Below, piece by piece: positions 9,732 through 34,900 of a stretch of 64,000 bases of DNA. Each line of letters starts with the position of its first letter. Positions within the stretch are counted from its first letter, which is position 1. The position numbers and the translations under genes were made by a program. Origin of the DNA: an uncultured bacterium (GTDB lineage: Bacteria; Patescibacteriota; Minisyncoccia; Phycocordibacterales; GWA1-40-21). The stretch is taken from the NCBI GenBank assembly GCA_963716205.1, contig OY970290.1, positions 239,417 to 303,416 of the forward strand, given 5' to 3'. The notes beneath the pieces are model-generated. The model was not told where the DNA came from. It saw only the letters and a program-made list of their open reading frames with translations, and made no database searches.

Positions 9732-9888
9732 CGAAAACGTTATGAAAAAAATAAACGTTATTGGCGGCGAATGGCGAACAGCATGGCACTGGGGATTTGC
9801 TATTTGAAAAGTAAGAAACCATGTAAAATATCGCTTTGATCCAGAGCATTCTTTCTATTTTACAAGCACTCAAAGGGAGGATATTTCA

Positions 9889-10107: not shown

Positions 10108-10880
10108 ACAAAATTCCTTTTGGCGGAAATTACCTTATTGAACGGAAAATCCTGGCTTCGCTTGGAGAGGAAAGACGAAAACAAATCACCAGTGAGATTG
10201 AGCAAAAACGAGAACAAAAGAAATTCACCAAGCCGCCGGAAGTCGAACATATTCCCAAACCTGCTGAAGAACCAAAGCAAGAACCGAAATATGAACCTGT
10301 CCGAGAAAAGACGGGAAAGAAAGAACGGGTATCAGACCTGCCTGTCGAGACTAGTCCGGCACAGACGGAAGAAAAAGGCACGTCACGCCATCAATATCTT
10401 CAAAGTCTCATTAAACGTATGGCCGAGGAAAAGGGATACAAAGCGACCGTCGAGGAATCAATTCCCGATGGTCGGGTTGATGTCGGTCTTCTAAAGAATG
10501 GGAAGAAAATTGCCTGTGAGATTTCCGTGACCAATGCCCCCGATAATGAATTAGGAAATATCGAAAAGTGTCTCAAGGCAGGATACGACAAAGTGCTCAT
10601 GTGTGCCCAGGACAAGAAACATTTGGAAAAGATACGGACCTTGGTTATGGAAAAGCTAACCGACTCCGCTCTTGAAAAAGTAATGTTTGTTGAACCCGAA
10701 GAACTTTTCTTTTATCTGGAAGAAGAAGCGGCCAAGGATTCAGGAAAGGAACAACGGGTTAAAGGCTATAAGGTAAAGGTGAATTACCAACCCTTAAACC
10801 AGGACGACAAGAAAAGGAAACGCGAGGCCGTGGCCCAGGTCATCCTCGGAGCTTTCAAAAGGTTGAAGGGGAAGGATTAG
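10071..10880 (+). CDS. hypothetical protein; C-terminal region weakly PD-(D/E)xK-like (GRVDVGLL...ACEIS)
   Basis: 269-aa ORF with a K/E/P-rich linker then a conserved-looking C-terminal domain. No firm assignment. Confidence 0.45.
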   Translation: MDVGEDEFRNYIDKIPFGGNYLIERKILASLGEERRKQITSEIEQKREQKKFTKPPEVEHIPKPAEEPKQEPKYEPVREKTGKKERVSDLPVETSPAQTEEKGTSRHQYLQSLIKRMAEEKGYKATVEESIPDGRVDVGLLKNGKKIACEISVTNAPDNELGNIEKCLKAGYDKVLMCAQDKKHLEKIRTLVMEKLTDSALEKVMFVEPEELFFYLEEEAAKDSGKEQRVKGYKVKVNYQPLNQDDKKRKREAVAQVILGAFKRLKGKD

Positions 10881-10965
10881 GATTTGGCCGTTTAAGACCT
10901 CGGCAGACTTTTTTAAAATAAAGTTGTGTTAAAATGAATTGCATAAAGATTAAAAGAAGAATCCA

Positions 10966-11568
10966 ATGAAAGATATAAAGTCAGAATCCATTTTAGTAAT
11001 GAAAATCGGCTACCATGGAGCCGAAGATATTGACACTATTATTGCGAGAAAAAAAGAAGAAGAAAAAAAATGCGGTCAAACCTATTGGGGTTATGGCGGG
11101 GTATTATGCCACCCAATCCGAGTTGTCCAAAATTTTGCATCGCAAGTCGGAACGAAAAAAATCAAAGTTCTTTTCAGTGTTACCAAATCCCCATTCCAAT
11201 CTGATCCGACGCGAGCAAAATATTTTTCCGAGGACGGAAAAACATGGTCACCATTACATGACAGCGCCAATGTTCTGGCATCAAAATTTGCAATAGTTCT
11301 TCGTTCTCTCAAAGCATGTAAAAAGACAATAGTTCTTAACGATTATTGTGTCCCAATAGGTCCTTCAAAGGGGCGTCCCCTTAACGAATATCTAAGATTT
11401 CGTGTTGATAAAGCGGTCGGAACATTATCGAACAAAAAGAACCTGGGTCCCCTTAAGAGTCTTCCGATCCAGTTTGAGGCTGATTTGGTCCCGCCTTACG
11501 CCATCTTGGTGAGTCACCAGCATCAACCTGAGTCCCATCATCCATCACAAATTTCCCTTCCTTATTGA
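10966..11568 (+). CDS. hypothetical protein
   Basis: 200-aa ORF whose 3' end overlaps the convergent recombinase fusion by 116 nt. Confidence 0.4.
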   Translation: MKDIKSESILVMKIGYHGAEDIDTIIARKKEEEKKCGQTYWGYGGVLCHPIRVVQNFASQVGTKKIKVLFSVTKSPFQSDPTRAKYFSEDGKTWSPLHDSANVLASKFAIVLRSLKACKKTIVLNDYCVPIGPSKGRPLNEYLRFRVDKAVGTLSNKKNLGPLKSLPIQFEADLVPPYAILVSHQHQPESHHPSQISLPY

Positions 11569-13984
11569 TATAAGCTGGAATTTTCCTGTCTTTGCTCCCA
11601 TAGAATTTAGGCATTGCATCATCTTTTATTTTTTGGCCCTCAAAAGGAGCCGGACAATTATAGACACGATCTAAAACAAGATTTGCCGACCGTAAACTAG
11701 GTCGGTCTTCGAGATGATATTGATGAATTTCACGAATCATTTCAGAAACTACATACCCGTGCTTGCATAAAAATTCTTGAATGTTCGCCATTGCTTCTCT
11801 ACTCCAATCTTCCTTATGAGCAAAAGGCAAAATAGCCATTCCCCAACTTGGAGCTGGTTTGCAAAATTCCATGCAACGTCCTAGAAATAGTTTCCCGCAT
11901 TCGCCCTTGTCAACTGATCCATAAGGAGGGTTCGTGTAGAACACTTCATGAGCGCCTTTATATTTTTCAGGGATTGGATCTCGAACATTGTAGCGATGAA
12001 CCGAAATAAGATCGGGAGGAAGGCGCAAGTCGTCGATTACTTGTTCAATAAATGCTAAAAGCCTTTCATCAAAATCGAAAATACGAATTTTGGCCGGTCC
12101 TTTGAAAACATCTCGATTAGCAAGATGCGCAATAACCAAACCCATACAATCGCCATCACCAACAAATGCAACGTCTCTGTATTTCAGATAATCAATTGCT
12201 AAAAGTGCCTGAGTTGCTTGGCTTCCGGGAAGCATAAAGACTTGATCTATTGAACGGATTGGACGTGGTCTATCTGGATGTTGCGTGACCTGTGCAACTA
12301 AATCCACAATAGCCGCATCAGGCCTCACCCCCAGGCTGAGAGCCACGTCTTTTTGCCACAGCCTCAGGTCAAGGCGGCGCTTTCGGATATGGTCCCCAAG
12401 GGTTGTTAGGCTCTTAGGGTAGGCAGGATTTTGTGGTTTTTTGGCCGATAATTGAAAGTTAATGAATGGCAACGCAGGAATGAGGTTGTGTTGCTTTTCA
12501 TTAGTCAATTCAGCGGTCGAGGGAATATAGGCGAGGGATATGGAAATATCATCCGAGCCTATAGTGATCCTATCGGTGATATTCTCGATGATCCGCCGTT
12601 TTTCTTCGAAAACCAGTTCTTTCCATTTGGAATAAAGGTCTTTGGCCTCGGATATGATCTCGTCACTTGAGAGGTATTTGATCTTGAGGAAGTCTATCTC
12701 TCCCTGAAGGTCCGGGAGCTGGGCCTTGACCTTCTCCAAGCGCTCTTCATTTTCCCGGAATTCGGTTCCAAAGGTCTTCACGCTGATCTCGTCGTTGTAA
12801 TAGGCTTTTTTTATCTTGTCCATTTGGCTTTCGATTTTGGCACGCTCTTTCTCAAGCCGCTCTAAGAGTTCCTGCTTTTCCTGAATGACCATATCGGCCC
12901 GTTCAAGGTGCTTGGAAATCTCAACCGGGGAAAAGAAGAAGTTTTTTAATTGTTCATGGAATATGGATTCAAGATCATCCGGGAGTATCTTGTTCCTGCA
13001 TTTGGCACAGGTATATTTCGACGCATTCGGCGGTATGGGCATCTTGCCCCCGCAGTGACAAAAGACGAAGCCGGTGAAAAGATGTGTTGGCCTTTTGGCG
13101 GGTTTCTTACGTTTCGATTCCTGTTCCCTTAAGATAGCGTTGCACTGATCCCACAATTCAGCAGAAACAATGGGCTCTACCTCGACATATTCCCATTCCG
13201 CTTTGGGCTTCATCACCCATGCTTTGCCGTCGCCCAGGCTCTTCGTGTAATTGAGCCGGTGCTTTCCTTTGGCCGTGGGGTCTTGGAGAAGACGGTCAAC
13301 AGTGGTATCGGAAAACTTTGAGCCTTTGCGCGTCCGATATCCCTTGTCATTGAGAATCCGGGCAACAGTTTTCTTGCGGTGATGTTCAAGGAAATATTCA
13401 AAGATGAGTTTTGCAATGGGAACCTCTTTGGGTTCAGGGATGAGTTGTTTGTCTTTCCAGCGATAACCGAAAGGAGCCTGACCGCCAAGGGGTTTGCCGA
13501 GCTTTGCCCGGATGGGGACAGAGGCGGCCACCCGCGAAGCGATTTCTTCCCGTTCCCATTGGGCCATGGCCGCGATCATGGTGTAGAAGAGACGACCAGC
13601 AGGGGTTGAAGTATCGATGGATTCTTGGAGGGAAATTAAATCGGCGTCACTCTCATTGAAGAGGTCGGCGAAATCTAAAAGCTCTCTAGTGTTTCGGGCA
13701 AGGCGAGCAAGTTTCGAGAAGATGAGTCCTGTGATATGGCCGGACTTAATATGCCCAAGCATCTTTTGAGCTTCCGGGTGGGCAATGACTGCTTTGCCGC
13801 TTACTGCCTCTAAGTGATAGACCTCTTTGACATTCCAACCCTTCGACTCTGCATAATACCGCGCCCGTTTCTCATGGTGTTCAGGGCTTTCCCCCCGCGC
13901 CTGATCTTCCGTTGAAACACGAATCCAAATACCGACGTTTTTCTTTCCTTGGTTTTTTTCCACGAGCGCACCTCCACAAATCAA
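11453..13984 (-). CDS. large serine recombinase fused to a C-terminal HTH plus DUF43/BpsA-like SAM-dependent transferase (methyltransferase-like) domain
   Basis: 843 aa with N-terminal IWIRVSTEDQ (catalytic Ser), a recombinase domain, a Cys cluster CHCGG..CAKC, and a coiled coil. After about residue 500 it continues with LGDHIRKRRLDLRLWQKDVALSLGV (HTH-like), VAFVGDGDCMGL (GDGD), and VFYTNPPYG (NPPY). Confidence 0.8.
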   Translation of the reverse strand: MICGGALVEKNQGKKNVGIWIRVSTEDQARGESPEHHEKRARYYAESKGWNVKEVYHLEAVSGKAVIAHPEAQKMLGHIKSGHITGLIFSKLARLARNTRELLDFADLFNESDADLISLQESIDTSTPAGRLFYTMIAAMAQWEREEIASRVAASVPIRAKLGKPLGGQAPFGYRWKDKQLIPEPKEVPIAKLIFEYFLEHHRKKTVARILNDKGYRTRKGSKFSDTTVDRLLQDPTAKGKHRLNYTKSLGDGKAWVMKPKAEWEYVEVEPIVSAELWDQCNAILREQESKRKKPAKRPTHLFTGFVFCHCGGKMPIPPNASKYTCAKCRNKILPDDLESIFHEQLKNFFFSPVEISKHLERADMVIQEKQELLERLEKERAKIESQMDKIKKAYYNDEISVKTFGTEFRENEERLEKVKAQLPDLQGEIDFLKIKYLSSDEIISEAKDLYSKWKELVFEEKRRIIENITDRITIGSDDISISLAYIPSTAELTNEKQHNLIPALPFINFQLSAKKPQNPAYPKSLTTLGDHIRKRRLDLRLWQKDVALSLGVRPDAAIVDLVAQVTQHPDRPRPIRSIDQVFMLPGSQATQALLAIDYLKYRDVAFVGDGDCMGLVIAHLANRDVFKGPAKIRIFDFDERLLAFIEQVIDDLRLPPDLISVHRYNVRDPIPEKYKGAHEVFYTNPPYGSVDKGECGKLFLGRCMEFCKPAPSWGMAILPFAHKEDWSREAMANIQEFLCKHGYVVSEMIREIHQYHLEDRPSLRSANLVLDRVYNCPAPFEGQKIKDDAMPKFYGSKDRKIPAYINKEGKFVMDDGTQVDAGDSPRWRKAGPNQPQTGSEDS

Positions 13985-14447: not shown

Positions 14448-14879
14448 GTGGATACGCTCACCCAGTTCATCACCGGGAAAGGCTACAGCGTCCGCGTCGG
14501 CATGACCCCTTCTGAAGATATCTACGGCTATGTCAATGACAAGAAGGAGATCGTGCTCAAGGAGGGCGAGAGTTCCGACCATCAAGCTTTGGTTCTAGCT
14601 CATGAAATGTCGCACGCCCTTCTCGGTCATGTCGGTTCTTTCCAGAATCAAGCGGAGAAGGAACTTGAAGCCGAAACGTCTGCCTGGATCATTTGCCGCA
14701 ATCTCGGATTGCGGACTAATGAAACAAGTTTTGCTTACTTGGCAACATGGGCAAGCGGGCCGGAACAAGAAAAGAAGTTGGAAAAGGCCGCTTCTCGTGC
14801 CTGTCAGGTGGCGCAACTAATTTTGGAAGGTCTGGAAGCAATGAAGCAGATTTCCAGCCAGAAAGGAGAAATGGTATGA
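14448..14879 (+). CDS. HExxH metallopeptidase-like protein (ImmA/IrrE- or ArdC-C-terminal-like)
   Basis: LVLAHEMSHALLGH motif. GTG start. Its stop overlaps the next start (ATGA). Confidence 0.5.
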   Translation: MDTLTQFITGKGYSVRVGMTPSEDIYGYVNDKKEIVLKEGESSDHQALVLAHEMSHALLGHVGSFQNQAEKELEAETSAWIICRNLGLRTNETSFAYLATWASGPEQEKKLEKAASRACQVAQLILEGLEAMKQISSQKGEMV

Positions 14880-15145: not shown

Positions 15146-15164
15146 GAATTCCAATTCCTAGCAA

Positions 15165-15198
15165 AGCCCTATCGACAATCGATAGGGCTTTTTTTTTA
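15165..15198 (+). terminator. rho-independent terminator
   Basis: Hairpin agccctatcga-caa-tcgatagggct followed by ttttttttt. Confidence 0.8.
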
Positions 15199-15294
15199 CT
15201 TATCTCTGATTTTTTATTTTATAGAAATTCTGTTATAGTTAATCCGTAGTTGTGTCCGAGTTGGTTTGAAATCCCAAGTCAAGAAACTCCAAAT

Positions 15295-16317
15295 ATGAAA
15301 AATTATTTTTATTACAAAGATAAAAAAAAAGTCCTACCTGTTTTAGGTGAGGAAAAAAATAAACTGGCAAAAAAGAAACTCGACCACATTCTTAAGACCA
15401 AAAAGGAATTAATACCAGAACACTTTATCGAAAGGTGGTCAGAGGTGGCATTGTATAATCCTGGCGGTGATGTTGAAAAAGCAAATGCCATTTTGATCAA
15501 TCCGGAAGACGGCGCTTACGATCTATCGAACCCACTCAACGACATGACAGGAAAAGAATGGGTAAAGTTCAGTTGCAGTTGGTTTATTTTTAATGCTCTG
15601 CACAAAGACTTAAAGGAAGAGAGAGAAGTATCTCCAAATACTCAGGATCATCCAGCGACATTTTCTCCGACAATGATTGAGGGGTTTGTGAAATTCTTTA
15701 CAAAAAAGGGAGAAAACGTACTCGATCCTTTTTGCGGCATTGGAAGCACTATGGTTGCCTGCAAACGAACCGGAAGAGTCGGCTATGGTATTGAGCTTAA
15801 TAAAAAATATTATGATCTGTCGCTCAAGCGAACTCCGGAATTCAAAAAGACCATATTCAACGAAAATGCGGCCAATATCAAAAAACTGAATCTGCCAAAG
15901 ATTGCTTTTTCGATTTCATCGCCTCCGTACTGGGACATGCTTAACCGAAGTACCAAAGACTTCAAAAAGGATAGAACGAAAGACGGTTTCGATGTTAACT
16001 ATTCCGAAGCCGAAGAGGACTTGGGTAATATTGATAACTACGATCTGTTTTTGGAAAAATTAGCAAATATATATTTTGACATATTTGATCTACTCAAAGC
16101 CGGAGGGTATCTCGTGGTCATTGTGAAGAACCTTAAGAAAGAGGGTAAAATGTATCCATTGGCGTGGGACTTGGCTCGGCTTCTCTCGAAGAAGTATATG
16201 CTCAAAGATGAGAAGCTTTGGATACAAGACAAAGTCGGTCTTGCCCCCTACGGATACCCTTCAGCGTGGGCAAGCAACATACTGCATCATTACTGTTTAG
16301 TTTTTCAAAAGAAATAA
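15295..16317 (+). CDS. DNA methyltransferase (N4-cytosine/N6-adenine family, SPPY motif IV)
   Basis: Motif X/I HPATFSP..VLDPFCGIGST is followed by motif IV SISSPPYW. It overlaps or abuts the next MTase. Confidence 0.8.
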   Translation: MKNYFYYKDKKKVLPVLGEEKNKLAKKKLDHILKTKKELIPEHFIERWSEVALYNPGGDVEKANAILINPEDGAYDLSNPLNDMTGKEWVKFSCSWFIFNALHKDLKEEREVSPNTQDHPATFSPTMIEGFVKFFTKKGENVLDPFCGIGSTMVACKRTGRVGYGIELNKKYYDLSLKRTPEFKKTIFNENAANIKKLNLPKIAFSISSPPYWDMLNRSTKDFKKDRTKDGFDVNYSEAEEDLGNIDNYDLFLEKLANIYFDIFDLLKAGGYLVVIVKNLKKEGKMYPLAWDLARLLSKKYMLKDEKLWIQDKVGLAPYGYPSAWASNILHHYCLVFQKK

Positions 16318-16318: not shown

Positions 16319-17947
16319 ATGTCTTTAACCATTTCACAAATTGTAAAAAACCTTGTCGATGTAAACGATATCAAACACGATCGGCAGTATTCGCGCGTGG
16401 CGAAACTTCATAAATATTGGTCAAGAAAACCTTGGTTTGTTATCGATCAATACATTGAGAAATATTCCAAAAAGGATCACGTCGTTTTGGACCCGTTTTG
16501 TGGTAGCGGAATTATTGGACTGCAATCAGTTTTAGCCAATAGAAATTTCATCGGTTACGACCTGAATCCTTTCGCTGTCTTTCTCGCAAAGAACTCTTTG
16601 CAGGTCGGTTATGACAACGCCTCTTTTGAAGAGGACTTCTCAGCGATTGAGCGGGCTGTTCGGGAGGAAATAATGCCTCTCTATGCGACCAAAGACAAAT
16701 ATATTCTGTATACCATTCTTGGAAAGAAAAATAGTAAGGACTATAACGCTGTCATCGCTGACAGTAATTTCCACAACAAGCAAAAAGTTAGTCTCTCTCA
16801 AGAATATCTAAATCCAATCATAAAATTTCCTAAGAACTTGAAGTATCCAGACAAGGACTTTCCAGAGAAATTTTATAAAGATCGTTTTTCTTATAAGGGT
16901 GTGAAGCGAGTGTCAGACATGTTCACCAAGAGGAACCTTCTTGCTTTGGCAACACTTCATATGGCTATCAACAAATTGCCTCTAAAAAACAGAGATTTGT
17001 TCATGCTTGCATTTACGAACACCCTATTGCATGTAAGTAAATTAAAAGCAGAAAATGTGCGGCCTCTTGGTGTAAATAACTTTTGGATTCCGGATGATTT
17101 TATTGAAGAGAATGTCTGGTGGAGGTTTGTAGACCGAGTCAATAATGTAAAAATGGCAAAGGAAGTTATTGCAGACAAGGCTTCCCGAAACGAGGTCTCG
17201 AAGCCTGTCTCTAAGATTTATAACAAGTCGTCTTTGAAGATGATTGAAATTAAGCCGGGTAGTGTTGACTATTTGATTACCGATCCTCCATACGGCGACA
17301 CCATCCAATACTCAGAGCTTTCATACATCTGGAATTGCTGGCTTGAGAAAGAGTTTGAGATTGAGAATGAAGTCATTATAAACCCTGTGCAAAAAAAGGG
17401 AGTGAACGAATACTACGATCAGCTCGCTACTTTTATCCGCGAAGCGAAAAGGGTTCTCAAAAAAGACGCTTACTTTACACTTGCATTCCACAACAAGGAT
17501 TTGAAAATTTGGATTAGCCTTGCCGAATTAATAAGAGATCATGGAATGGAATTGGTAGACATCTCTTCCTACGACACCTTCGGCAGTCCTTACAATAAAA
17601 ATTGGGCAAAATTTTCGCCCAAATCTGACTTCTATGTGACCTTTATAAATTCGAAAAATAAAGCAAGGGTTAAAAATAAAAAAGTTATCTATCCCAATGA
17701 TATTGCAGATGAGATCGTCAAATGCCTTGGCAAAAACAATGGCAAACTTTTTAATCTGAATAAGGCGTATGATCTGTTCGTAAGCGTAGTTATAAGTAAA
17801 ATATTTGATGGGTCGCAAGTCATTGAACACGAACGACTAAGTATTGAGAACATTATGAATCTTTTTCAGAACGTTCCACGAGATGAGAAGCATGGTAAGA
17901 AAAAGGAAACTGTTCAGATAAGTTTATTTGAACTACAACATGTTTAA
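16319..17947 (+). CDS. DNA methyltransferase (N6-adenine type, DPPY motif IV)
   Basis: N-terminal HKYWSRKP..VLDPFCGSGIIG (motif X/I) and LITDPPYGD (motif IV). 542 aa. Confidence 0.8.
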   Translation: MSLTISQIVKNLVDVNDIKHDRQYSRVAKLHKYWSRKPWFVIDQYIEKYSKKDHVVLDPFCGSGIIGLQSVLANRNFIGYDLNPFAVFLAKNSLQVGYDNASFEEDFSAIERAVREEIMPLYATKDKYILYTILGKKNSKDYNAVIADSNFHNKQKVSLSQEYLNPIIKFPKNLKYPDKDFPEKFYKDRFSYKGVKRVSDMFTKRNLLALATLHMAINKLPLKNRDLFMLAFTNTLLHVSKLKAENVRPLGVNNFWIPDDFIEENVWWRFVDRVNNVKMAKEVIADKASRNEVSKPVSKIYNKSSLKMIEIKPGSVDYLITDPPYGDTIQYSELSYIWNCWLEKEFEIENEVIINPVQKKGVNEYYDQLATFIREAKRVLKKDAYFTLAFHNKDLKIWISLAELIRDHGMELVDISSYDTFGSPYNKNWAKFSPKSDFYVTFINSKNKARVKNKKVIYPNDIADEIVKCLGKNNGKLFNLNKAYDLFVSVVISKIFDGSQVIEHERLSIENIMNLFQNVPRDEKHGKKKETVQISLFELQHV

Positions 17948-19034
17948 TCATATGGAAATATACAAAAAAGATTTTTTTAACATATTCAAAGCCAACTTTG
18001 ATTTCAAGATTGTTGAAACTGAAATGGGGCTGGCAGTCAAAATGCCCGCAAAGGAAGCTTTTATTTACAGCAGTATTACCGGTGCCGGGTACTTTGAAAA
18101 TCCAATCTATCCTTTTACCCCAAAAGGTCTGATGAAGCTTTTCTATAATGCATTCACCTATAAGTTCGTATCAGGTATTTTTGATAACGGTGTCCTCAAA
18201 AATACGCCGTACATTCTGTCGAAAGCAAAGAAGTATTTGTTTGAGGGCGATAAATATGTTGTCCCTATTGAATTTGAATCAGAAGAAAAATTGATCAATC
18301 TGCTCAAGGAAAAGTTTGATCATATTAAAAACCCAGAAAATTACATTATTCAGCGCATTGAGACAAGCAAGCAAGGCAACGGAATGGAACCATTCATGGA
18401 ATACCTTGCAGGCGAGTCTTTCCGACATCTTGGCTTCATTGTAGAGAATCAAATACCTCTTGCCCATGCAGTCGGCTCTCCGGATTTTGCTGGGTACGGT
18501 TTAAGTGACCTCATAATCAAGATAAGCGATTACGGATACCTATCAAGCGCCGGTTTTCACATGATTGAGTTGGCTCTCATTAGAAACTTTAAACAAGGGC
18601 CAAAGAACGAGAGTCACCATGTCACTCACGACTTTATTGTCGGTGAAGCAAAGACTGGGAGTCTGATCATGACCAAACAGTTGGAAAAATATCTCAATAC
18701 CGGACTATTTGATCAGGGATTTGAGATTCACCCTGCAAAGGCCAAGCCCTCAAAAGATTACTTCGGTTTGATCAGTTTGGATTCTGATTTCAAAATAAAA
18801 ATCACTCTCCCTGTAACTAAGCATACGGCGGAGAATCCGCTGTCACGGGAAGAGTATGCGATATGGCTTGGTAACTACATTAAGTTTTATCTAATTTCAA
18901 ATTTCACAAACGATGAGCTTAAGCAATTTTACATTGAACAGGAAGGTGAAGAGATAAATAAAGAGTCTGATCTTGTTAGTTTCGTCTTGGGGTTGGAGAC
19001 TGAAACAATTCTAGCAAAAATTAAATCCCTATAA
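17928..19034 (+). CDS. hypothetical protein, candidate PD-(D/E)xK nuclease (possible restriction component)
   Basis: 368 aa. E..SPDFAGYG...IVGEAKTG resembles the E/PD/ExK triad. It overlaps the MTase stop by 20 nt. Confidence 0.5.
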   Translation: MNYNMFNHMEIYKKDFFNIFKANFDFKIVETEMGLAVKMPAKEAFIYSSITGAGYFENPIYPFTPKGLMKLFYNAFTYKFVSGIFDNGVLKNTPYILSKAKKYLFEGDKYVVPIEFESEEKLINLLKEKFDHIKNPENYIIQRIETSKQGNGMEPFMEYLAGESFRHLGFIVENQIPLAHAVGSPDFAGYGLSDLIIKISDYGYLSSAGFHMIELALIRNFKQGPKNESHHVTHDFIVGEAKTGSLIMTKQLEKYLNTGLFDQGFEIHPAKAKPSKDYFGLISLDSDFKIKITLPVTKHTAENPLSREEYAIWLGNYIKFYLISNFTNDELKQFYIEQEGEEINKESDLVSFVLGLETETILAKIKSL

Positions 19035-19035: not shown

Positions 19036-20049
19036 ATGGCATACTCCAGCGACGAAATTATTAAAAGAGAGATTCTAGATACCCTTGGTTATGAAACCAA
19101 TGGGATTAAACTTCGCATCTTTCCACAAAGCAGTAACGAAGATCAAAAGCCATTTTCAGAGGGCGGTCTTACTTTTGGGTTTAAAGGTGTTTCTTATGGT
19201 TCGTGTGATGCCGCATGGTATGTGGACGAAAAATGGGTAGACGGATTGAATGGCAAAGAAATAAACAAAAAGCCAGTGATTGCACTCGAAGGTACTGATG
19301 CTTTAAGTAGGAACTCGGCAGGCAATGCTCTCTATCAGCGATTTCATCATGCACTCGGTGGGGTAAAAAACGGCATCATTGGTGTTTATTATTTGAAAAA
19401 AGGCACTCAAAAAATCCAGCCAGACCTCTACGGCATGGCCTACTTTGCATCTAAGGTGGAAAAAGGAAAATATCTAATCACAGATGATCTCTCCGTCGTT
19501 AAGGATTTGCTGGATCGCTATCACAAACCCGCAGAATTTTCTGCTTACGTCAAAGCTTATTTGGAAAAGATGCACAAGATTTTTATAACTAAATTCAATG
19601 CCGCCTATGGTGGAGATTGGAAAAGGTTTGCAGAGCATCGATCGACAATCATACAAAACGACTACGTTATTAAATATGCTGGCCGAATGAGAAGAAATTT
19701 CACTGACGGATCACAGCGTGCAGGGCATATTGCTGTCGGTGAGATGTTTCTTACCAAATACTATTTTTACGATAAAATGTTTTACTATCTTTTTCCGAAA
19801 ATGACACATAATGATTTGGAGGTTCTTGATCACAATAAAACCACGGACAAAGAGTGGTTCCTTTTGCGAAATGAGCCTAACGTTGAAATAAAGACTATGG
19901 ACGATATTGCCGGACTTAGTCAGTCAACCCGAGAAGCGCTTTTGAGTATCCAAGATACCCCTCTCAAGGGAGAGGCTATGCGCACTTTTAATAAATGCAT
20001 GAAAACCATTGTCGAGGGATTTAAGTCTGGCAAGTTGAAGCTGAAATAA
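19036..20049 (+). CDS. hypothetical protein (operon partner)
   Basis: 337-aa ORF tightly packed between neighbours. No motif is recognised. Confidence 0.5.
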   Translation: MAYSSDEIIKREILDTLGYETNGIKLRIFPQSSNEDQKPFSEGGLTFGFKGVSYGSCDAAWYVDEKWVDGLNGKEINKKPVIALEGTDALSRNSAGNALYQRFHHALGGVKNGIIGVYYLKKGTQKIQPDLYGMAYFASKVEKGKYLITDDLSVVKDLLDRYHKPAEFSAYVKAYLEKMHKIFITKFNAAYGGDWKRFAEHRSTIIQNDYVIKYAGRMRRNFTDGSQRAGHIAVGEMFLTKYYFYDKMFYYLFPKMTHNDLEVLDHNKTTDKEWFLLRNEPNVEIKTMDDIAGLSQSTREALLSIQDTPLKGEAMRTFNKCMKTIVEGFKSGKLKLK

Positions 20050-20072
20050 TTGTAAAGTTAGTACGAAATCCT

Positions 20073-22451
20073 ATGAAAATTCGTAAAATCAAATCGATAA
20101 AGAACTACAAATCATTTACGGATTTTGAGTGGCAAAAGTTTTGCAAGAATAAAGATGGCCAAGAATCCATACTACAAAATTTTACTACTATTTTTGGCGA
20201 GAACGGATCAGGAAAATCTTCCGTCTGTGATATTTTAAAAAGCGTTTCTCAGTATCAGGACTTTCAAAATACTCCACCGGCTTTGACCGAAATAGAGCTG
20301 AATGATGGTAGTAATAATCAAATTCATAAATATGAAAACGGGGGATGGCTAACCCAAGTCGAGAAAAATTCGTTTCTATTTTTCGATGTTGATTTTATCA
20401 ATGCGAATGTTCATACACATGGTATTAGGTCAAGTAATCAGCAACAAGGCGCGCACACACAAAAAGCGGGTAAGCTAATAATTGATTTAGATGAACAGGC
20501 GAACAGTCTCAAAGAGATAGTTAAGACAAACCAAGACGCATTGGAAACACAAAAGATTATTAGCAAAGATATCTTAGGACAATCATTTACAGATAAAGAT
20601 AAAGAACTTTTCGAAATATATAAGGATGATGATGAAAAAACAAAACAAGAAAAACTTTCCAAAGCAGAAGAAGAACTAAAAACACTTGAAGAGGGATTAA
20701 CAAACCTTGAAAAGGTTAATAAAAAGTATAACGAAATAAATCTCATATCGGCAGTTGATCAAATAGCATTTTCTAATGATTTTTCTTCAAAAGAATTTTT
20801 CACTGAATTGTTTACCCGTCAAATAAAAGAAAAGGCACAAGATGATGCAGACGAGAAGATAAAAACGCATTTTGCAAAGCACAAACAGTTTATTGAGTCC
20901 GCCAAAGACCAAATACCCGAAAAATACAGCGACGAAAACTGTCCCCTTTGTATGCAACCGCTCAAAAACGCTATAAAAGTTATTGAGTACTACAGAACCG
21001 TCTTTGATCAAACCTATGAAAATGCTAAACAAAAATTTTTGGCCGACATTGAAACCGCAAAAAGCGAATTGGAAATAATAAAGTCAAACCTGAATTTATT
21101 GCCCTCTAAGGCAAATGAAGTATTTGACGCACTGGAAAAAATAAAAACAGATTTTGAAATCAAAGACATTTACAAGCTTGATGAAAAAACAAAATATACT
21201 GAAAAGTTTAGTGGTATTACCATAAAAGAAATTGATGATTCGCTCATGGCGTTAGAATCTCTGAAAAAAATTGAACGAAAGCAAGTGGAAATAGCAAATC
21301 TCTATGACGTGATCGCCGCAAAGCTTGTAAAAATCGTAAAATCAGTTGAGGGCATCAACGAACTTATTGCCGAAAAAAATAAATTGATAAGTGATTTCAA
21401 AAGTAAATATTCTGATCAAACCAAAATCACGGATGAACTACAGGAGAAAAATAAAAAGCAAATAGACTTGAACCAGTTAGTAGATTTTTTGAAAAGCGAA
21501 AAAATAAAACTCATAAAACTTCAAAACGATGCTTCTGCCAAAGAGAAAACATTATCGGAAAAATTGAAAAAGACACAGGAGGATTTGAAAACATATCTTG
21601 CCAAAACAATTCCAGAGAGTGTTATTTCACAAATGATAATTATTCTTAATAAGTTTAATTTGGGCTTCACCCTTGAACATATCAAACCCGCAGCCAATAC
21701 AAAGGAATATTCTTTTTCGTTCAAAATTACTGATCTAAAAGGAAATGAACGAGAAATGAAGGATGGATTATCAGAAGGTGAGAGACAGCTAATTTCTCTT
21801 GCCTTCTTCTTTGCGATTAATGAAAATTTGCAGAGCAAGGATCAAACCGTCTTAATTTTTGATGATCCGATAACAAGCTTAGACTCGCCAAACTTAAAAA
21901 TTCTTGCAGAGTTGATACACAAGGAGACTCAGGAATTTTCTCAGGTTATAGTTTTTACTCACCATCCACTATTTTTTAAGTATTTAGCAAAATGTGTAAA
22001 TCCAAATCCAAGCAAGTTTGGCGTTTTAAAGAATGTAGAAAAATTCGGTGGAAGTTTTATCTTTGTTGACCCTGGATTTGATTTGACCTCTGAAATCCAA
22101 AAATGCAATCAAGAAATTACTCAAAATGCCAAAAACGGTGATCTAAAACCAGAGGAAATTGCCTTAAAATATGGACAACTTTTACGATTGGCAGTTGAAA
22201 AATTTATCAAAAATGACTTACTGATGTGGGATAAGGAAAATAACTTTGATGGCATAACAGAAAATTTGAAACAAGGAAAAAATAAAATAGCTAAACTTTC
22301 CGATGACGATTTGGAAGTGATAACAAATATGTATAAATATTGTAATTACTCCAATCTCTTACACGCTGATAAGGAAACACCTTCCGCACTTTCTGAACTA
22401 ATGACACACATTGATAAATTTGATCAAATCTTGGATAAAGTGAAGGTTTAA
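20073..22451 (+). CDS. Rad50/RloC-like ABC-type ATPase with coiled coil and CxxC hook; putative abortive-infection/anticodon-nuclease-type defence protein
   Basis: Walker A FGENGSGKSS and about 450 aa of predicted coiled coil containing DENCPLCMQPL. The ABC signature is LSEGERQLISLAFFFA, Walker B is VLIFDDPITSLD, and the H-loop is VIVFTHH. A roughly 110-aa C-terminal domain follows. Confidence 0.65.
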   Translation: MKIRKIKSIKNYKSFTDFEWQKFCKNKDGQESILQNFTTIFGENGSGKSSVCDILKSVSQYQDFQNTPPALTEIELNDGSNNQIHKYENGGWLTQVEKNSFLFFDVDFINANVHTHGIRSSNQQQGAHTQKAGKLIIDLDEQANSLKEIVKTNQDALETQKIISKDILGQSFTDKDKELFEIYKDDDEKTKQEKLSKAEEELKTLEEGLTNLEKVNKKYNEINLISAVDQIAFSNDFSSKEFFTELFTRQIKEKAQDDADEKIKTHFAKHKQFIESAKDQIPEKYSDENCPLCMQPLKNAIKVIEYYRTVFDQTYENAKQKFLADIETAKSELEIIKSNLNLLPSKANEVFDALEKIKTDFEIKDIYKLDEKTKYTEKFSGITIKEIDDSLMALESLKKIERKQVEIANLYDVIAAKLVKIVKSVEGINELIAEKNKLISDFKSKYSDQTKITDELQEKNKKQIDLNQLVDFLKSEKIKLIKLQNDASAKEKTLSEKLKKTQEDLKTYLAKTIPESVISQMIIILNKFNLGFTLEHIKPAANTKEYSFSFKITDLKGNEREMKDGLSEGERQLISLAFFFAINENLQSKDQTVLIFDDPITSLDSPNLKILAELIHKETQEFSQVIVFTHHPLFFKYLAKCVNPNPSKFGVLKNVEKFGGSFIFVDPGFDLTSEIQKCNQEITQNAKNGDLKPEEIALKYGQLLRLAVEKFIKNDLLMWDKENNFDGITENLKQGKNKIAKLSDDDLEVITNMYKYCNYSNLLHADKETPSALSELMTHIDKFDQILDKVKV

Positions 22452-22496
22452 TAATGGCCTTAGACTGTCACACTTTTGGAGCGGCGTTTACACATC

Positions 22497-22800
22497 AAGC
22501 AACCGATTTTTCTTTTTCAGGAAAGTCAGGTATGTTTAAAGAGACGTGAAATTCCCAGAATTCCCTAAGACTTTTGAAAATTAGGTTCCAATTCTGTAAG
22601 GTGTGGTCCACTCTGGTGAACATTGGAGGCAGAAATGCCTCTTTTGTCTTTTAAAGATTAGCTATCTTGATGGTTTAAAGAAAAAATTTTTCTAAAAAAC
22701 AGACGGCTCTAATTATGGATAGAAATTAATGACCCAAGGCGACTCGAACCGATAACGAAAGTTAGCTGTATTTTGTTTCTTTCGTTCATACCAGACCTCC
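22497..22800 (+). repeat. composite repeat copy C (left arm ccgatttttctttttcaggaaa..gtgaaattcc, M1 22584-22611, hairpin M2 22626-22656, inverted T-arm-like M3 about 22704-22790)
   Basis: About 80% identical to copy D over about 280 bp. M2 and the flank also match the sequence downstream of tRNA-Ala(TGC). Confidence 0.8.
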
Positions 22801-22855
22801 CATCATTGACAAATCCCTACTAAATGTAATCATTCCTTTATTAATAAAACTAATC

Positions 22856-23881
22856 ATGGAAGGAAAAACTCATTTTGAAAATATTGTAGGTGGAACACAA
22901 GAAGAGAAAAATGAGATTTTGTATGAATTACAAAAGACTTTTGAAACTCGTTCAGAAAAGCTTACAAAATATGAACTAGAAAAAACTATAGAAGATATAG
23001 GGCTTATTAAAAATACGGAATTGGTTGTAGATAAAATTGTGAGTCAATATGGAGGCAAACCGAAATCAATATCACTTGATCATATATATATCCTCAAGCC
23101 GGGGTCGGTGCTCGAAATGACCGAGGGAAAATTAGCAAGGGGTCTTCACCAGCCAGTAGGGCTTAATATTGGTGTTGAGAAGAAAGAATCAAAATTATTA
23201 TTTGCAAGTACTATTGCACATGAACTTTTTCATCTGAAATCTTACAAATCTGCACGTAAAGGAGAATCGGTTGATGACATAAGATTATACAGAACTGGAC
23301 TTTCAATGATTGACATCAAGGATGAGTCAAAAAAGGCTGGCGAAGAAAAAGAATATTTTTCTCAACTAGAGGAAGCTGTTGTGGTTGAATGCACTAGAAA
23401 ATTTCTTGATAACATCAGTATGGATAAGGAATTTAGACCAGAAACAGAGGCAATTAAAAAAATCAAAAATTGGGTTACTGAATTTTATAAAAGACGAGGA
23501 ATATCTCAAGATAAAATAGAAGAATTTAATGATGAGATAAAATATATATCAGATCCAGAGAAGTGGGTTTCGGACGTAGAAAATGCATACACTGAAGAAA
23601 ATAGAAAGCAGGCATATGCAGCAGGAATGTTTGAGTCACTTTATAAAAATGGTTCCGCAGAATCTATGGAAAGATATACAGAAAGAAAAAAACTATATGA
23701 TCTTCTTGATAAATTAGTTTTAGAATCCAATAGAAAATATAAAAATCGTAATGAATTATTTGACGAGTTTGCAAAAGCAAATTTTTCTGGTAATTATCTG
23801 CCGTTGGCGAAAATAATTGAGAGTATTTTAGGAAAAGGGTCATTCAGAAAAATAGCAGAAGATTTTAGTAATAAATCTTAA
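22856..23881 (+). CDS. hypothetical HExxH-motif protein (putative metallopeptidase)
   Basis: 341 aa with IAHELFH and no signal peptide. A cassette-like ORF between repeats C and D. Confidence 0.5.
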   Translation: MEGKTHFENIVGGTQEEKNEILYELQKTFETRSEKLTKYELEKTIEDIGLIKNTELVVDKIVSQYGGKPKSISLDHIYILKPGSVLEMTEGKLARGLHQPVGLNIGVEKKESKLLFASTIAHELFHLKSYKSARKGESVDDIRLYRTGLSMIDIKDESKKAGEEKEYFSQLEEAVVVECTRKFLDNISMDKEFRPETEAIKKIKNWVTEFYKRRGISQDKIEEFNDEIKYISDPEKWVSDVENAYTEENRKQAYAAGMFESLYKNGSAESMERYTERKKLYDLLDKLVLESNRKYKNRNELFDEFAKANFSGNYLPLAKIIESILGKGSFRKIAEDFSNKS

Positions 23882-23892
23882 AACATAATGAT

Positions 23893-24170
23893 TAAGCAGC
23901 CGATTTTTCTTTTTCAGGAAAATCTGGTATGTCTACAGAATCGTGAAATTCCTGGAATGCCTTGATGCTCTCGTATATTTGATTCCAATTTCGTAAGATG
24001 AGGTCCACCCAAGCTGACAAAAGAGGCAGAAATGCCTCTTTTGTCTTGTAAGGGCTAGCTATCTTGGTATTTCCAAAATAATTTTTCTCTAAATATCCAA
24101 CGGCTCTAATTATGGATATAGATTAATGACCCTACACGACTCGAACCAATTTTGATAATTTTTTAGACAG
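23893..24170 (+). repeat. composite repeat copy D (left arm, M1 23981-24008, hairpin M2 24023-24053, M3 about 24101-24165)
   Basis: See copy C. M1 is gattccaatttcgtaagatgaggtccac. Confidence 0.8.
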
Positions 24171-25466: not shown

Positions 25467-25537
25467 GGGCCTATAGTATAGTGGTAGCACGCGTCATTCG
25501 CATTGACGAGACGGCAGTCCGATTCTGCCTAGGTCCA
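25467..25537 (+). tRNA. tRNA-Ala (anticodon CGC)
   Basis: Acceptor gggccta/taggtcc with G3:U70, anticodon loop ttcgcat. The T-loop is tccgatt, with C at position 55. Confidence 0.7.
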
Positions 25538-25575
25538 CAAAAGCAGAAAATCTAAACTGCTTGATAAATAAATTT

Positions 25576-25647
25576 CGGAGCGTGGTGTAACGGTAACATG
25601 CATGATTCGGGTTCATGTGACTCCGGGTTCAAATCCCGGCGCTCCGA
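25576..25647 (+). tRNA. tRNA-Pro (anticodon CGG)
   Basis: Acceptor cggagcg/cgctccg, anticodon loop ttcgggt, T-loop ttcaaat. Confidence 0.8.
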
Positions 25648-25693
25648 CAAATGATTTTCAAATTTGGAAAAAATCCTGTATAATCACACAGAG

Positions 25694-31073: not shown

Positions 31074-31928
31074 ATGTTTACAAATTATCAAAAAATAAGC
31101 AGAGCCATAGGCAATTTTACAATAGTTGTCCTTTTAGCTGTTGCATCACTCAGTTTTGCTTCAGTAGCCCATGCGGACTACTTTGCAACAACAACATTGA
31201 CCTCAACAAGTTCAATGAATTTCTTTACAGTTCCTGCTGGAGTTACCAGTATTAATGCGACTCTTACTGCAGGCGGTGGCGGTGGCGGTGGCGGAGCATA
31301 CTCGTTTGGAGGTGGCGGTGGCGGAGCAGGAGGAGTATATTCTGTAGAAGCGATTCCAGTTATTCCTGGACAAATAATCGCATATACAGTTGGAGCAGGT
31401 GGTGTTGGTGGCACTAGTGGCTTTATAAATGTTGCAGGTGGAAATGGTGCTGATGGAGGAAATACCGTTTTGACTCTTGGAGCATCAGGTATTATGGAAA
31501 TTGGTGGAAAAGGAGGAATGGGAGCTATCTACGGAAATTCAAATAGTGGAAAAGGTGGACTCGCAGGCGGTCTTGGTGGAACAAATGGTACTAACGGTGA
31601 TGACCAGATAAATACTCAAAGAAATTACGGAGGCACTGGTGGTTCAACACCAAACGGTCTTGCCGGAATCGGAGGATATGGTGATGCTAATACATACAGA
31701 CTTCCAACAACTGGAACAAATGGTGCTGGAGGCGGAGCAGGAAGCGGATGGGCTTCTGGTGATGGCGTCTATCGTGATGCTGGTGCAAATGGCGGAGATG
31801 GTTCAATAGTACTTAGTTATTTTGCCGATCTTACTGCCTCCTGTTATTACCATTACTGGTTCAAGCACTCTTACACTTCAAGCAAGTTCAACTGGTGTTT
31901 ATGTAGATGCCGGAGCAACTGCACTTGA
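31074..31928 (+). CDS. glycine-rich N-terminal segment (signal peptide plus GGxGG repeats), probably the N-terminal part of the giant surface protein separated by a frameshift near 31820
   Basis: Signal peptide MFTNYQKISRAIGNFTIVVLLAVASLSFASVAHA then a Gly-rich domain. The frame ends in nonsense (..CYYHYWFKHS..) while the +1 frame continues as the adhesin. Confidence 0.5.
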   Translation: MFTNYQKISRAIGNFTIVVLLAVASLSFASVAHADYFATTTLTSTSSMNFFTVPAGVTSINATLTAGGGGGGGGAYSFGGGGGGAGGVYSVEAIPVIPGQIIAYTVGAGGVGGTSGFINVAGGNGADGGNTVLTLGASGIMEIGGKGGMGAIYGNSNSGKGGLAGGLGGTNGTNGDDQINTQRNYGGTGGSTPNGLAGIGGYGDANTYRLPTTGTNGAGGGAGSGWASGDGVYRDAGANGGDGSIVLSYFADLTASCYYHYWFKHSYTSSKFNWCLCRCRSNCT

Positions 31929-34900
31929 TAATGTTGATGGAGTGGTGCCGGTAACAACAACTTTTAATAATGTAAATCTTGCGGCAACAGGAACCTATTC
32001 TGTTGTCTATTCTGCTACCGATGCGGCTGGAAATACAGCTACAACTTCACGAACGGTGATTGTCATTGATACGACAGCGCCAGTTATAACTTTTGTTCCG
32101 GGCACGCAAGTTTTTGAAGCGACAGGCGCAACAACAACTCCAATATTAGCACCAATTATAGCTACGGATGCCTTTGGTCCAAGCCCGGTTATTACCTATT
32201 CACCCATTAGTTTTGGTCTCGGAACCACAACAGTCACTTGGACAGCAACTGATCCAAATACTGGAAATACTGTTATCGCCACATCCAGCGTTGTTATAAA
32301 GGACACAACTGCACCAGTAATTGTCCTTAACGGAACAAATCCGATGAATGTCCTTTATGGGTCTGTATTTATAGACCCAGGAGCGACAGCTTATGACCTT
32401 GTAGATGGAACAACTACAGTTACAACGACTTTTGATAATGTAAATACTGCAGCAACAGGAACATATTCTGTTGTTTATTCTGCTGTCGATTTGTCAGGAA
32501 ATGCAACAAGTTCAACACGAATTGTGAATGTTCTTGCAACTGCACCAGTTCTTACAACACTTTCTATTTCACCATTAAATTTAACAACAACAGTCGGCAC
32601 CACAACACAGTTTGTGGCTACAGCACTTGATCAATACGGAAATCCAATTGCAGCTTCCGTTTTCTGGGGACCATCAAATCCTTCTGTTGGAACAATCGGT
32701 TTCAATACAGGCTTGTTTAATGCAGTTTCAGTTGGAACAACGACAATCACGGCAATCAGCGGAGCATTTAATGCTACTACAACAGTCACCGTTGTTCCCC
32801 TTGTTGCCACGTCTTCACCTTCAGCGGTGACAATTACCAATTCAACATTAGGCGGAACATTTTTTGCTTCTTATATTCCAACACTTGCTGAAACTACAGT
32901 TGCACCAATTGGAACGACAACTGGCACTACGACAATTACAAATTCTACATTGTCTGGATCATGGAACGTAAATAATTCAACACTTACAACAACTACGCTC
33001 GGCACTTCAACATTGGATAATGTAATTTCTACAAATTCTGTCATTACAAATTCCAATGCTACAAATTGTACAATTCTTAATTCATCTATCGATGGTTATT
33101 TACTTTCAAATTGCTATGTTGCGAACTCAACCTTTGATCCTGGAGCAATTGTAAATTCAACCACGACAAGCGTATCAGGATCAGATGCATTTATATACGA
33201 TTCAACAGTTAGTAATTCAACCGTTTCAACATCAACTATCCATGGATCAACTATAGCTGATTCAATAGTTACGTTTAGCTCCGTTGCCACATCTACGATT
33301 ACGAATAATTCAAATGTTGCAAGTTCAACAATAATTTTGTCAAATATTGATAATTCGCAAGTTACGAATTCAACGATTACCAATAGCACGATAATTCTTG
33401 GTTCAGTGATTTCATCTTCAACATTGACCAATGTCACTGCTGCAAGTTCAACAATCACGAATACAACTTTGTCTGATGCGACAACTACAAATGCAGTCAT
33501 TGATAGCGGTACTATATATAGTGGAACAATTACGATTGGCGGAAATACATTTACTGTTACTGAACCAACCTTGCTTTCAGATTTGATTGAACCGACAATA
33601 ACTTCTGTTACGCCAAATTCTGGCTCAATTAATGGAGGAACAAATATTATTATTGATGGAACTAACTTTGCATCAAGTACAGCAACCGTTGGCGGAGTTT
33701 TGGCAACAAATATTATTGTTGCAAGCAGCACAGAAATTACAGCAACAACTCCAGCTGGAGCAGCGGGTGCAGCTGATGTCGTTGTTACAAACACTAATGA
33801 TGGAGGCATTGCCACTTCAACTGGAGGATTTATGTATACATCAGGCGGAGGATCGGGAAGTTCAACCAGTTCCGATGACACCTTGAGCAACTTGACGGTC
33901 TCAGCCGGAACGCTCGCACCAGCTTTTGCCGCAGGAACACTTTCATATACTGACACATTGCCAGCAGGAACCGTTATCATTCCGACAGTCACGGCGACGA
34001 CAAATGATGCAAACGCAACCGACACAATTACTCAAGCATCCGCTTTGCCGGGATCAGCAACCATTGCAGTCACGGCACAAGATGGAACGACCACACAAAC
34101 ATATACCGTTGCTTTCACGGTATCAGGCGGAGGATCGGGAAGTTCAACCAGTTCCGATGACACCTTGAGCAACTTGACGGTCTCAGCCGGAACGCTCGCA
34201 CCAGCTTTTGCCGCAGGAACACTTTCATATACTGACACATTGCCAGCAGGAACCGTTATCATTCCGACAGTCACGGCGACGACAAATGATGCAAACGCAA
34301 CCGACACAATTACTCAAGCATCCGCTTTGCCGGGATCAGCAACCATTGCAGTCACGGCACAAGATGGAACGACCACACAAACATATACCGTTGCTTTCAC
34401 GGTATCAGGCGGAGGATCGGGAAGTTCAACCAGTTCCGATGACACCTTGAGCAACTTGACGGTCTCAGCCGGAACGCTCGCACCAGCTTTTGCCGCAGGA
34501 ACACTTTCATATACTGACACATTGCCAGCAGGAACCGTTATCATTCCGACAGTCACGGCGACGACAAATGATGCAAACGCAACCGACACAATTACTCAAG
34601 CATCCGCTTTGCCGGGATCAGCAACCATTGCAGTCACGGCACAAGATGGAACGACCACACAAACATATACCGTTGCTTTCACGGTATCAGGCGGAGGATC
34701 GGGAAGTTCAACCAGTTCCGATGACACCTTGAGCAACTTGACGGTCTCAGCCGGAACGCTCGCACCAGCTTTTGCCGCAGGAACACTTTCATATACTGAC
34801 ACATTGCCAGCAGGAACCGTTATCATTCCGACAGTCACGGCGACGACAAATGATGCAAACGCAACCGACACAATTACTCAAGCATCCGCTTTGCCGGGAT

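Follow-up and report, generated by a model that had tools for sequence, protein, structure and literature searches.

What kind of protein closes the restriction-modification operon in a 64,000-nucleotide (nt) stretch of DNA from an uncultured bacterium of the Patescibacteriota (assembly GCA_963716205.1, contig OY970290.1, positions 239,417 to 303,416 of the forward strand; this whole stretch is referred to as the window)? The gene in question encodes an ATP-binding cassette (ABC) ATPase of 792 amino acids (aa), in which a first-pass annotation, made by a model from the sequence alone, had noticed a coiled coil, a CxxC zinc-hook-like motif and a C-terminal domain that could be a nuclease. RloC proteins are defined by PrrC-like ABC motifs, a coiled-coil/zinc-hook insert and a C-terminal Arg-X3-Glu-X36-52-His motif (PMC2610378). 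We propose, with a probability of roughly 0.72, that the 792-aa protein is an RloC-type anticodon nuclease that serves as a second line of defence carried in restriction-modification operons. This proposal builds on the architecture of the protein, the conservation of its motifs, its homology to RloC-like proteins, its position in the operon and its linkage to restriction-modification, all of which were observed directly and are detailed below.

The gene forms an uninterrupted open reading frame (ORF) from the ATG at 20073 to the stop codon at 22451. Invariance of its residues was judged in an alignment of 25 homologues, in which all ABC motifs (Walker A, Q-loop, signature, Walker B/D-loop and switch histidine) were kept. 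The gene and the motifs of its ATPase head are located as follows:

20073..22451, + strand: RloC-like gene, 792 aa
20196..20219, + strand: Walker A (P-loop) GENGSGKS, residues 42-49, with G42, N44, G45, G47 and K48 invariant
20454..20462, + strand: Q-loop HTQ, residues 128-130, where the helical insert begins (helix from residue 128), with H128 and Q130 invariant
21768..21782, + strand: ABC signature LSEGE, residues 566-570, with L566, S567, E568, G569 and E570 invariant
21849..21884, + strand: Walker B VLIFDD (residues 593-598) and D-loop SLD (residues 602-604), invariant from F596 through D604
21957..21965, + strand: H-loop THH, residues 629-631, with H630 and H631 invariant

Walker A thus sits at about residue 42, where the first-pass annotation had placed it, while the signature, Walker B and H-loop, which it had put at residues 620-685, are actually found at 566-631, about 55 residues further upstream. 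An AlphaFold model of the whole protein reached a mean predicted local distance difference test (pLDDT) score of 69.7, with a poorly modelled N-lobe. Foldseek matched this whole model to Rad50 (7zr1_C, the best match, E-value (E) 1.3e-6), to SMC heads and to Lamassu LmuB, and a sequence search of the PDB with the whole protein returned Rad50 and SMC heads only, with no RloC or PrrC structure among the matches.

The ABC motifs are split by a long insert, the parts of which are:

20454..20906, + strand: N-terminal arm of the insert, residues 128-278, with AlphaFold helices at 128-223 and 240-278 (pLDDT about 80-90) and 3.5-residue periodicity
20940..20951, + strand: CPLC zinc-hook-like motif, residues 290-293, with C290, P291 and C293 invariant
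20952..21647, + strand: C-terminal arm of the insert, residues 294-525, with AlphaFold helices at 294-361, 369-396, 407-512 and 515-525 and the same periodicity

Residues 128-525 (approximately 400 residues) are helical in the AlphaFold model, with a pLDDT of about 75-91, and proline and glycine together make up 2.5% of them. For the three long helices, 14, 4 and 0 of 500 shuffles attained the observed 3.5-residue hydrophobic periodicity. The model and the periodicity therefore support an insert that is heptad-periodic and coiled-coil-like, as the first-pass annotation had supposed, in which the antiparallel pairing of the arms is putative. The C-terminal arm is approximately 70 residues longer than the N-terminal arm.

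The motif DENCPLCMQPL corresponds to residues 287-297, and its CPLC is the sole CxxC of the protein. By our own arithmetic, about 0.05 CxxC motifs are expected by chance for seven cysteines in 792 residues, but a chance occurrence is countered by the invariance of C290, P291 and C293 in the 25 homologues. Moreover, of approximately 95 full-length representatives of the wider family, nearly all have one single CP[FLY]C within residues 263-309. In the AlphaFold model, CPLC lies in a loop directly before the helix at 294-361. By analogy, CPLC would be a zinc hook, for which zinc binding is predicted. The motif was earlier described as lying roughly mid-way in the insert; the motif itself was found, with an invariant core, yet 162 residues of the insert precede it and 232 follow it.

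Downstream of the H-loop, approximately 160 aa remain, within which the folded domain spans roughly 125-150 aa, instead of the roughly 110 aa estimated earlier. This region holds the putative catalytic residues:

22005..22448, + strand: C-terminal domain, residues ~645-792, in which a helical bundle comes after a small beta hairpin; candidate anticodon nuclease of HEPN type
22185..22199, + strand: R705-x3-E709 (LRLAVE) of the putative triad, invariant in alignments A1 and A2 and aligned with the R-x3-E of the RloC-like clade
22362..22364, + strand: H764 of the putative triad (CNYSNLLHADKE), invariant and in register with the HH of the classical RloC-like clade

Across the 25 homologues, the pattern R705-x3-E709-x54-H764 is invariant, and its three residues are embedded in the conserved motifs KYGQLLRLxVEKFIKNDLLMW and YCNYSNLLHADKE. 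When set beside the R..E..H residues of RloC and PrrC, to which the first-pass annotation had pointed, this pattern fits the published motif except for two residues of spacing. Profile comparison with hhalign aligned the C-terminal domain alone to the C-terminus of the classical RloC-like clade with 95.7% probability (E 8.6e-9), and with 98.9% probability (E 1.2e-17) when the H-loop was included, in both cases with R, E and H in register. Modelled separately, residues 649-792 yielded a pLDDT of 80.2 and a predicted template modelling (TM) score of 0.72, and at least 14 of the 30 top PDB matches that Foldseek returned for this model were HEPN toxins or domains, although these matches were weak (E 0.18-1, TM 0.41-0.54). 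The fold of the domain is therefore weakly suggested to be HEPN-like. Because R, E and H are invariant, a catalytic role of the domain can be argued, in line with the nuclease module that had been suspected; that the activity would be that of an RNase, and that its target would be tRNA, is proposed by analogy with characterised relatives.

The family to which the protein belongs points in the same direction. Its best curated models were Pfam AAA_13 (99.3 bits versus a cut-off of 36, covering profile positions 15-587 of 713) and PADLOC PDC-S06 (E 3.5e-30; the best model was covered over 3-630 of 784, and another over 249-816 of 858), while SMC_N, AAA_21, Rad50, LmuB and mad3 gave generic and weaker matches. 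On the same PDC-S06 models, classical RloC-like representatives scored between 1e-66 and 3e-194. A homologue search recovered 186 proteins; among the matches listed, 120 homologues were 59-79% identical to the query, most of them full-length at approximately 790 aa. The few that carry a name come from Thermoproteota, Elusimicrobiota, Patescibacteria, Firestonebacteria, Deltaproteobacteria and Brocadiaceae, and identities of 59-79% across such very distant phyla imply frequent transfer. Two homologues (P0041 and P0091, 73% and 64% identical) are called "wobble nucleotide-excising tRNase" in IMG, which is the RloC annotation. No relatives of the protein were found on IMG/VR viral contigs.

A profile search of 1.84 billion representatives yielded 3979 matches, approximately 83 of which (E < 1e-30) align over their full length, C-terminus included. 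The more distant matches of 750-810 aa mostly align over residues ~22-640 only, but nonetheless carry an R-x3-E approximately 90 residues from the C-terminus, followed by S-x-x-HH (e.g. IRPFLEG...INDYSKKYHH), and this combination is, as judged from sequence, the published RloC pattern. Nearly all of the approximately 95 representatives have both the R-x3-E at this distance and a single CxxC at 263-309. A homologue search with the C-terminal profile revealed only short fragments and split genes, and no new architecture apart from one probable chimera. Specifically, three short proteins (P0168, from a metagenome, P0306 and P0313) consist of only the C-terminal domain of the present family, and one such protein is fused to an N-terminal fragment of carbamoyl-phosphate synthase (CPSase_L_D1); the three probably do not represent new architectures but remnants of genes or chimeras from assembly. 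Literature searches returned census mentions of PDC-S06 without a characterisation, and, within the library searched, no new mechanistic or structural work on RloC since 2022.

A number of points nevertheless weigh against an RloC-type assignment. The HEPN structural matches are individually non-significant, and four-helix bundles match promiscuously. The E-to-H spacing of 54 falls two residues outside the published range of 36-52, and the residue before the triad histidine is leucine, not serine. Taken alone, the C-terminal domain was recognised by no library model (the best Pfam match was Caprin-1_dimer, E 0.06), and the AAA_13 match ends at profile position 587, short of this domain. The hook is displaced from the midpoint of the insert; the published map of GkaRloC shows a like asymmetry (insert 121-540, hook ~291). 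The tie to characterised proteins runs through published motif positions, IMG and COG names and an unnamed clade of representatives. Finally, characterised RloC has been described as rarely linked to restriction-modification, whereas the present clade is mostly linked, so that its regulation may differ.

In the window, the RloC-like gene comes last in a tight array of five + strand genes and starts 23 nt after the gene that precedes it. The other members of this array and the hairpins that bracket it are:

15163..15191, + strand: terminator-like hairpin upstream of the operon, a 13-bp stem followed by a T run
15250..16317, + strand: N4/N6 DNA methyltransferase, the first gene of the operon (Pfam N6_N4_Mtase 1.4e-22; PADLOC MTase_II 1.5e-33)
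16319..17947, + strand: second DNA methyltransferase, a composite of an N6_N4 part and a PglX/DUF1156-like part, by library matches
17928..19034, + strand: 360-368-aa protein, candidate restriction subunit, which always co-occurs with the methyltransferases of the cassette
19036..20049, + strand: 337-aa protein, candidate restriction endonuclease, from a 90%-identity cluster of 84 members found in company with the methyltransferases
22625..22642, + strand: terminator-like hairpin approximately 175 nt past the ATPase stop codon, the probable end of a five-gene transcription unit

As no + strand terminator-like sites were found between 15250 and 22451, this region probably forms one five-gene restriction-modification transcription unit with the RloC-like gene as its last member. 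The first methyltransferase belongs to a 173-member 90%-identity cluster, the named members of which are DNA modification methylases or site-specific DNA-methyltransferases. The 360-368-aa and 337-aa proteins had no Pfam, NCBIfam, PADLOC or meaningful PDB match, and the former contains SPD...x53...EAK, a loose PD-(D/E)xK-like pattern. In all, PDB sequence searches with three neighbouring proteins of unknown kind gave no meaningful match. Because of their conserved co-occurrence with the methyltransferases and this loose pattern, the 360-368-aa and 337-aa proteins are presumably the restriction component of the system and would belong to an uncharacterised endonuclease family.

The linkage to restriction-modification extends well beyond the window. 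Out of six homologue contexts examined on contigs, four are restriction-modification operons, and in other genomes the RloC-like gene trails unrelated restriction-modification systems at gaps of 6-30 nt. The contexts include the following sets:

Homologue context: RadC-D12 methylase, DUF4145, PLD nuclease and N4-N6 methylase
Homologue context: EcoRI-type methylase and GmrSD_N-HNH nuclease
Homologue context: C5 methylase, HaeII and Vsr

The two remaining contexts are without restriction-modification, one copy lying beside conjugation genes and one standing alone. A scan of 185,579 species genomes uncovered 51 loci, many of them in Patescibacteria. Pfam searches of 90 ORFs flanking 36 genomic loci revealed N6_Mtase (9), ResIII (8), D12 methylase (6), Methylase_S (6), Eco57I (6) and SWI2_SNF2 (6) as the commonest neighbour families, followed by N6_N4_Mtase (5), HSDR_N (5), RE_HaeII (3), C5 methylase (3), Vsr (3) and GmrSD_N/HNH (3). 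An ORF with a methyltransferase motif lies at most 3.5 kb away in 24 of 39 loci, and such motifs occur in 28 of 243 nearby ORFs versus 1 of 103 at distances above 4.5 kb. The order hsdM-hsdS-gene-hsdR is seen in three homologue loci (L021, L022 and L040). In most loci, members of the present clade directly follow restriction-modification operons of types I, II and IIG, which are unrelated to one another, or lie within them.

The four-gene cassette of the window itself recurs in many metagenomes at 90% protein identity or more. In loci L059-L062 (in L059 at 8041-13248), three different genes follow it in place of the RloC-like gene: one for a 906-aa protein that carries two GHKL ATPase domains, one for a Response_reg_2-like protein and one for a C5 methylase. 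The DNA similarity between the window and L059-L062 runs through the 337-aa gene and stops 4 nt past its stop codon. Since the same four-gene cassette is joined to another module at a sharp DNA junction, the RloC-like ATPase is an independently exchangeable module docked at the 3′ side, and the junction after the 337-aa gene appears to be a defined place at which accessory modules are swapped.

How else might the protein be explained? A variant that keeps the same sensor holds that the HEPN-like domain cuts other RNA (mRNA or rRNA), or acts on some other substrate, and is not an anticodon nuclease. It draws on the divergence of the C-terminal domain, which has conserved motifs of its own and is missed by the C-terminal part of the AAA_13 profile, and on the fact that some HEPN RNases, RNase LS and LsoA among them, act as indiscriminate mRNases (PMC3710099). 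The alignment of R, E and H with the RloC-like clade, however, speaks for the anticodon, as does the fact that both characterised RloC proteins (GkaRloC and AbaRloC) and PrrC target tRNA anticodon loops (PMC2610378, PMC3874168), and we regard this variant as unlikely. Still less probable, in our judgement, is that the protein acts as an accessory subunit of the neighbouring restriction enzyme, in DNA tethering or end processing, with its C-terminal domain as a protein-interaction module. Its place at the end of a restriction-modification operon, with a gap of 23 nt to the gene before it, its linkage in most loci and the lack of a recognisable nuclease domain in the restriction genes of the cassette would all suit such a subunit. 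But proteins that are 60-79% identical trail non-homologous HaeII-type, PLD-type, GmrSD/HNH, D12/TdeIII, type I and type IIG systems, some members stand alone or beside conjugation genes, and the cassette of the window exists without an RloC-like gene and with another module in its place; the invariant R/E/H moreover argues for catalysis.

Finally, we disfavour, as very improbable, a Rad50/SbcC-type repair ATPase or an SMC-like subunit of Lamassu or MADS, despite the structural matches to Rad50, SMC and LmuB, the PDB sequence matches to Rad50 and SMC heads, and the PADLOC matches to LmuB (7e-13) and mad3 (2.4e-19). Partner genes of such systems (Mre11/SbcD, LmuA/LmuC or other mad genes) were found neither in the neighbourhood of the gene in the window nor in homologue loci. 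Specifically, there was no metallophosphatase (Mre11/SbcD) among the ORFs scanned at 10-32 kb of the window, nor among the 25 most frequent Pfam families of the 90 ORFs neighbouring homologues, and the identity with Rad50/SbcC was rejected given an NCBIfam Rad50 score of 31.7 bits against a cut-off of 1000 and the conserved domain of approximately 160 aa after the H-loop. LmuB was rejected because its score is weaker than that of PDC-S06 (3.5e-30), its match is limited to the ATPase head, and PADLOC found no LmuA or LmuC match in the neighbouring genes. The mad3 match, likewise weaker than PDC-S06, was rejected because it aligned residues 8-640 of the query to positions 6-332 of a 374-position model and thereby reflects the ATPase head only. 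The methyltransferases of the window scored 1e-33 to 1e-45 as MTase_II versus 1e-9 to 1e-13 as mad2, and no other mad genes were found by PADLOC in the neighbouring genes, save that the ATPase itself matched mad8 marginally (E 1.7e-4). The first-pass annotation had kept open a repair protein with an SbcD partner; in the event, the insert is helical, the best models are AAA_13 and PDC-S06 rather than SbcC or SMC, and no SbcD/Mre11 gene lies nearby.

For an RloC-type anticodon nuclease, the following course of events can be envisaged. By analogy with characterised RloC, the ATPase and the hook would keep the nuclease silent. Massive DNA breakage, arising either from restriction in action or from phage that evade it, would provide the trigger; the Rad50-like head and hook would sense the DNA ends, and ATP hydrolysis would release the HEPN-type nuclease (R705/E709/H764). 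The freed nuclease would then cut tRNA anticodon loops, arrest translation and abort the infection. Activation by DNA ends is likewise proposed by analogy; because the partner restriction enzymes are unrelated, a generic DNA-end signal is the more economical trigger, and the protein would most likely constitute a portable second line of defence that does not depend on binding one particular restriction enzyme.

More tentatively, and as an idea that we think possible but would not bet on, the clade may represent a self-contained "restriction guardian" that inserts precisely 3′ in any type I, II or IIG operon, rivals other ATPase-effector modules for that slot, and is triggered by DNA ends stemming from its neighbour's restriction of either phage DNA or, after loss of the cassette, the host chromosome. 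If so, DNA restriction would be coupled directly to tRNA restriction without protein-protein contact, and mobile restriction-modification elements of Patescibacteria and other small-genome lineages would become more strongly addictive and selfish.

The base composition and the wider surroundings of the operon were inspected as well. The RloC-like gene has a GC content of 33% versus approximately 41% in the window as a whole and 38-40% in the restriction-modification genes, and the region 20001-24000, which holds this gene and its downstream neighbour, drops to 33%, consistent with a separate, recent acquisition. The downstream neighbour (22856-23881, + strand) is a 341-aa ORF with a HELFH (HExxH) zinc-metallopeptidase-like motif and no family match. 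The 400-nt spacer that separates it from the RloC-like gene contains terminator-like hairpins on both strands, and an Rfam search of this spacer gave no match.

Between tRNA genes, the island around the RloC-like gene also contains two serine recombinases and an ImmA/IrrE-like protein. The latter is a Peptidase_M78 ORF at 14448-14879 (+ strand), just 5′ of the operon; ImmA/IrrE-like ORFs are typical of regulatory modules in mobile elements. At 11453-13984 (- strand) lies an 843-aa large serine recombinase with Resolvase and Recombinase domains and a C-terminal BpsA_C fusion (E 1.8e-24); BpsA_C is the C-terminal domain of branched-chain polyamine synthase, and such a fusion is unusual for an integrase. 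The second large serine recombinase (7516-9066, - strand) abuts tRNA-Val (7328-7402, - strand), and overlaps, at its 3′ end, a predicted tRNA-Ala (7505-7580, + strand), while tRNA-Ala and tRNA-Pro genes are located at 25467-25648. Because this recombinase meets tRNA genes and further tRNA genes follow at 25467-25648, the arrangement suggests a tRNA-flanked mobile island of approximately 18 kb, or two nested islands. Elsewhere in the window, an ice-binding-like protein (E 4.5e-60) is encoded at 5002-6660, and a 1665-aa surface protein with Ig-like repeats at 31822-36819, spanning a stretch of 51% GC that is well above the window mean.

As far as sequence can tell, the 792-aa protein thus appears to have the defining features of RloC that were examined, with a divergent C-terminal sub-type and a weak HEPN fold match. 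Restriction-modification-linked ABC-HEPN proteins are a known kind, to which the RloC-like clade adds a member. What makes it mildly notable is its tight and broad linkage to restriction-modification, its high conservation across phyla and the swap of modules at a defined junction. What naturally triggers RloC in an infection still lacks proof, and how it relates to restriction systems is a matter of debate; the present clade offers a strongly conserved, compact RloC-type protein, abundant in uncultured Patescibacteria and tied by position to many restriction-modification types. If its nuclease answers DNA ends made by restriction, this would account for the joint travel of such modules and restriction systems and provide a simple model of layered defence. 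For annotation, "AAA family ATPase" genes that end restriction-modification operons can be recognised as RloC-like by their CPxC hook, R-x3-E and distal histidine.

Among known systems, RloC (COG4694) is the closest in build. The name rlo stands for restriction-linked ORF, and the 804-aa GkaRloC of Geobacillus kaustophilus has a hook at Cys291 and the triad R692/E696/H737, all of which are required for activity (PMC2610378). Excision of the wobble nucleotide from tRNA, inhibition by Zn and a DNA-dependent ATPase that turns on the nuclease are known for GkaRloC and AbaRloC only. The RloC ATPase activates the nuclease and needs DNA, mutations in the hook short-circuit the switch (PMC3458546), and inducers of double-strand breaks switch on RloC in vivo, even when restriction-modification proteins are absent (PMC3874168). 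The present protein is of similar length, likewise has its ABC motifs split by a coiled-coil insert of approximately 400 aa, carries a single CxxC near residue 290, where GkaRloC has Cys291, and places its triad at 705/709/764 versus 692/696/737. It differs in the divergent sub-type of its C-terminal domain, which the end of the AAA_13 profile fails to cover, in the motif CN-x-SN-x-x-H (versus S-x-x-HH) and the E-to-H spacing of 54, in the hook CPLC (CPFC in most relatives), and in the concentration of its clade in Patescibacteria and other uncultured lineages.

PrrC, encoded by the E. coli prr locus, shares an ABC ATPase domain at its N-terminus, the C-terminal R-x3-E...H nuclease and the embedding of its gene in a restriction-modification system, but is without the coiled-coil/zinc-hook insert, in contrast to the helical insert with CPLC described here. 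It is about half the size of the RloC-like protein. The hsdM-hsdS-gene-hsdR order of L021, L022 and L040 agrees with what we take to be the order of the prr locus. PrrC is tied to type Ic systems and silenced by that enzyme, whereas the partners here are of unrelated types, and because of this a specific silencing contact in the style of PrrC is unlikely. The cassette of the window has no HsdS or HsdR and consists of two type II-like methyltransferases and two proteins without family match.

Rad50, SbcC and T4 gp46 resemble the protein in their ABC head, long antiparallel coiled coil and CPxC zinc hook, but the coiled coil here is much shorter and is accompanied by an extra C-terminal HEPN-like domain. 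The ABC-HEPN and paraMORC(GHKL)-HEPN proteins known from an earlier comparative-genomic study (Anantharaman et al. 2013, PMC3710099) embody the same concept, in that an NTPase sensor is fused to a HEPN RNase within restriction-modification operons and serves there as a second prong of defence, but they do so with other ATPases or with classical HEPN domains. The GHKL ATPase gene of L059-L062 occupies exactly the slot that is held by the RloC-like gene in the window.

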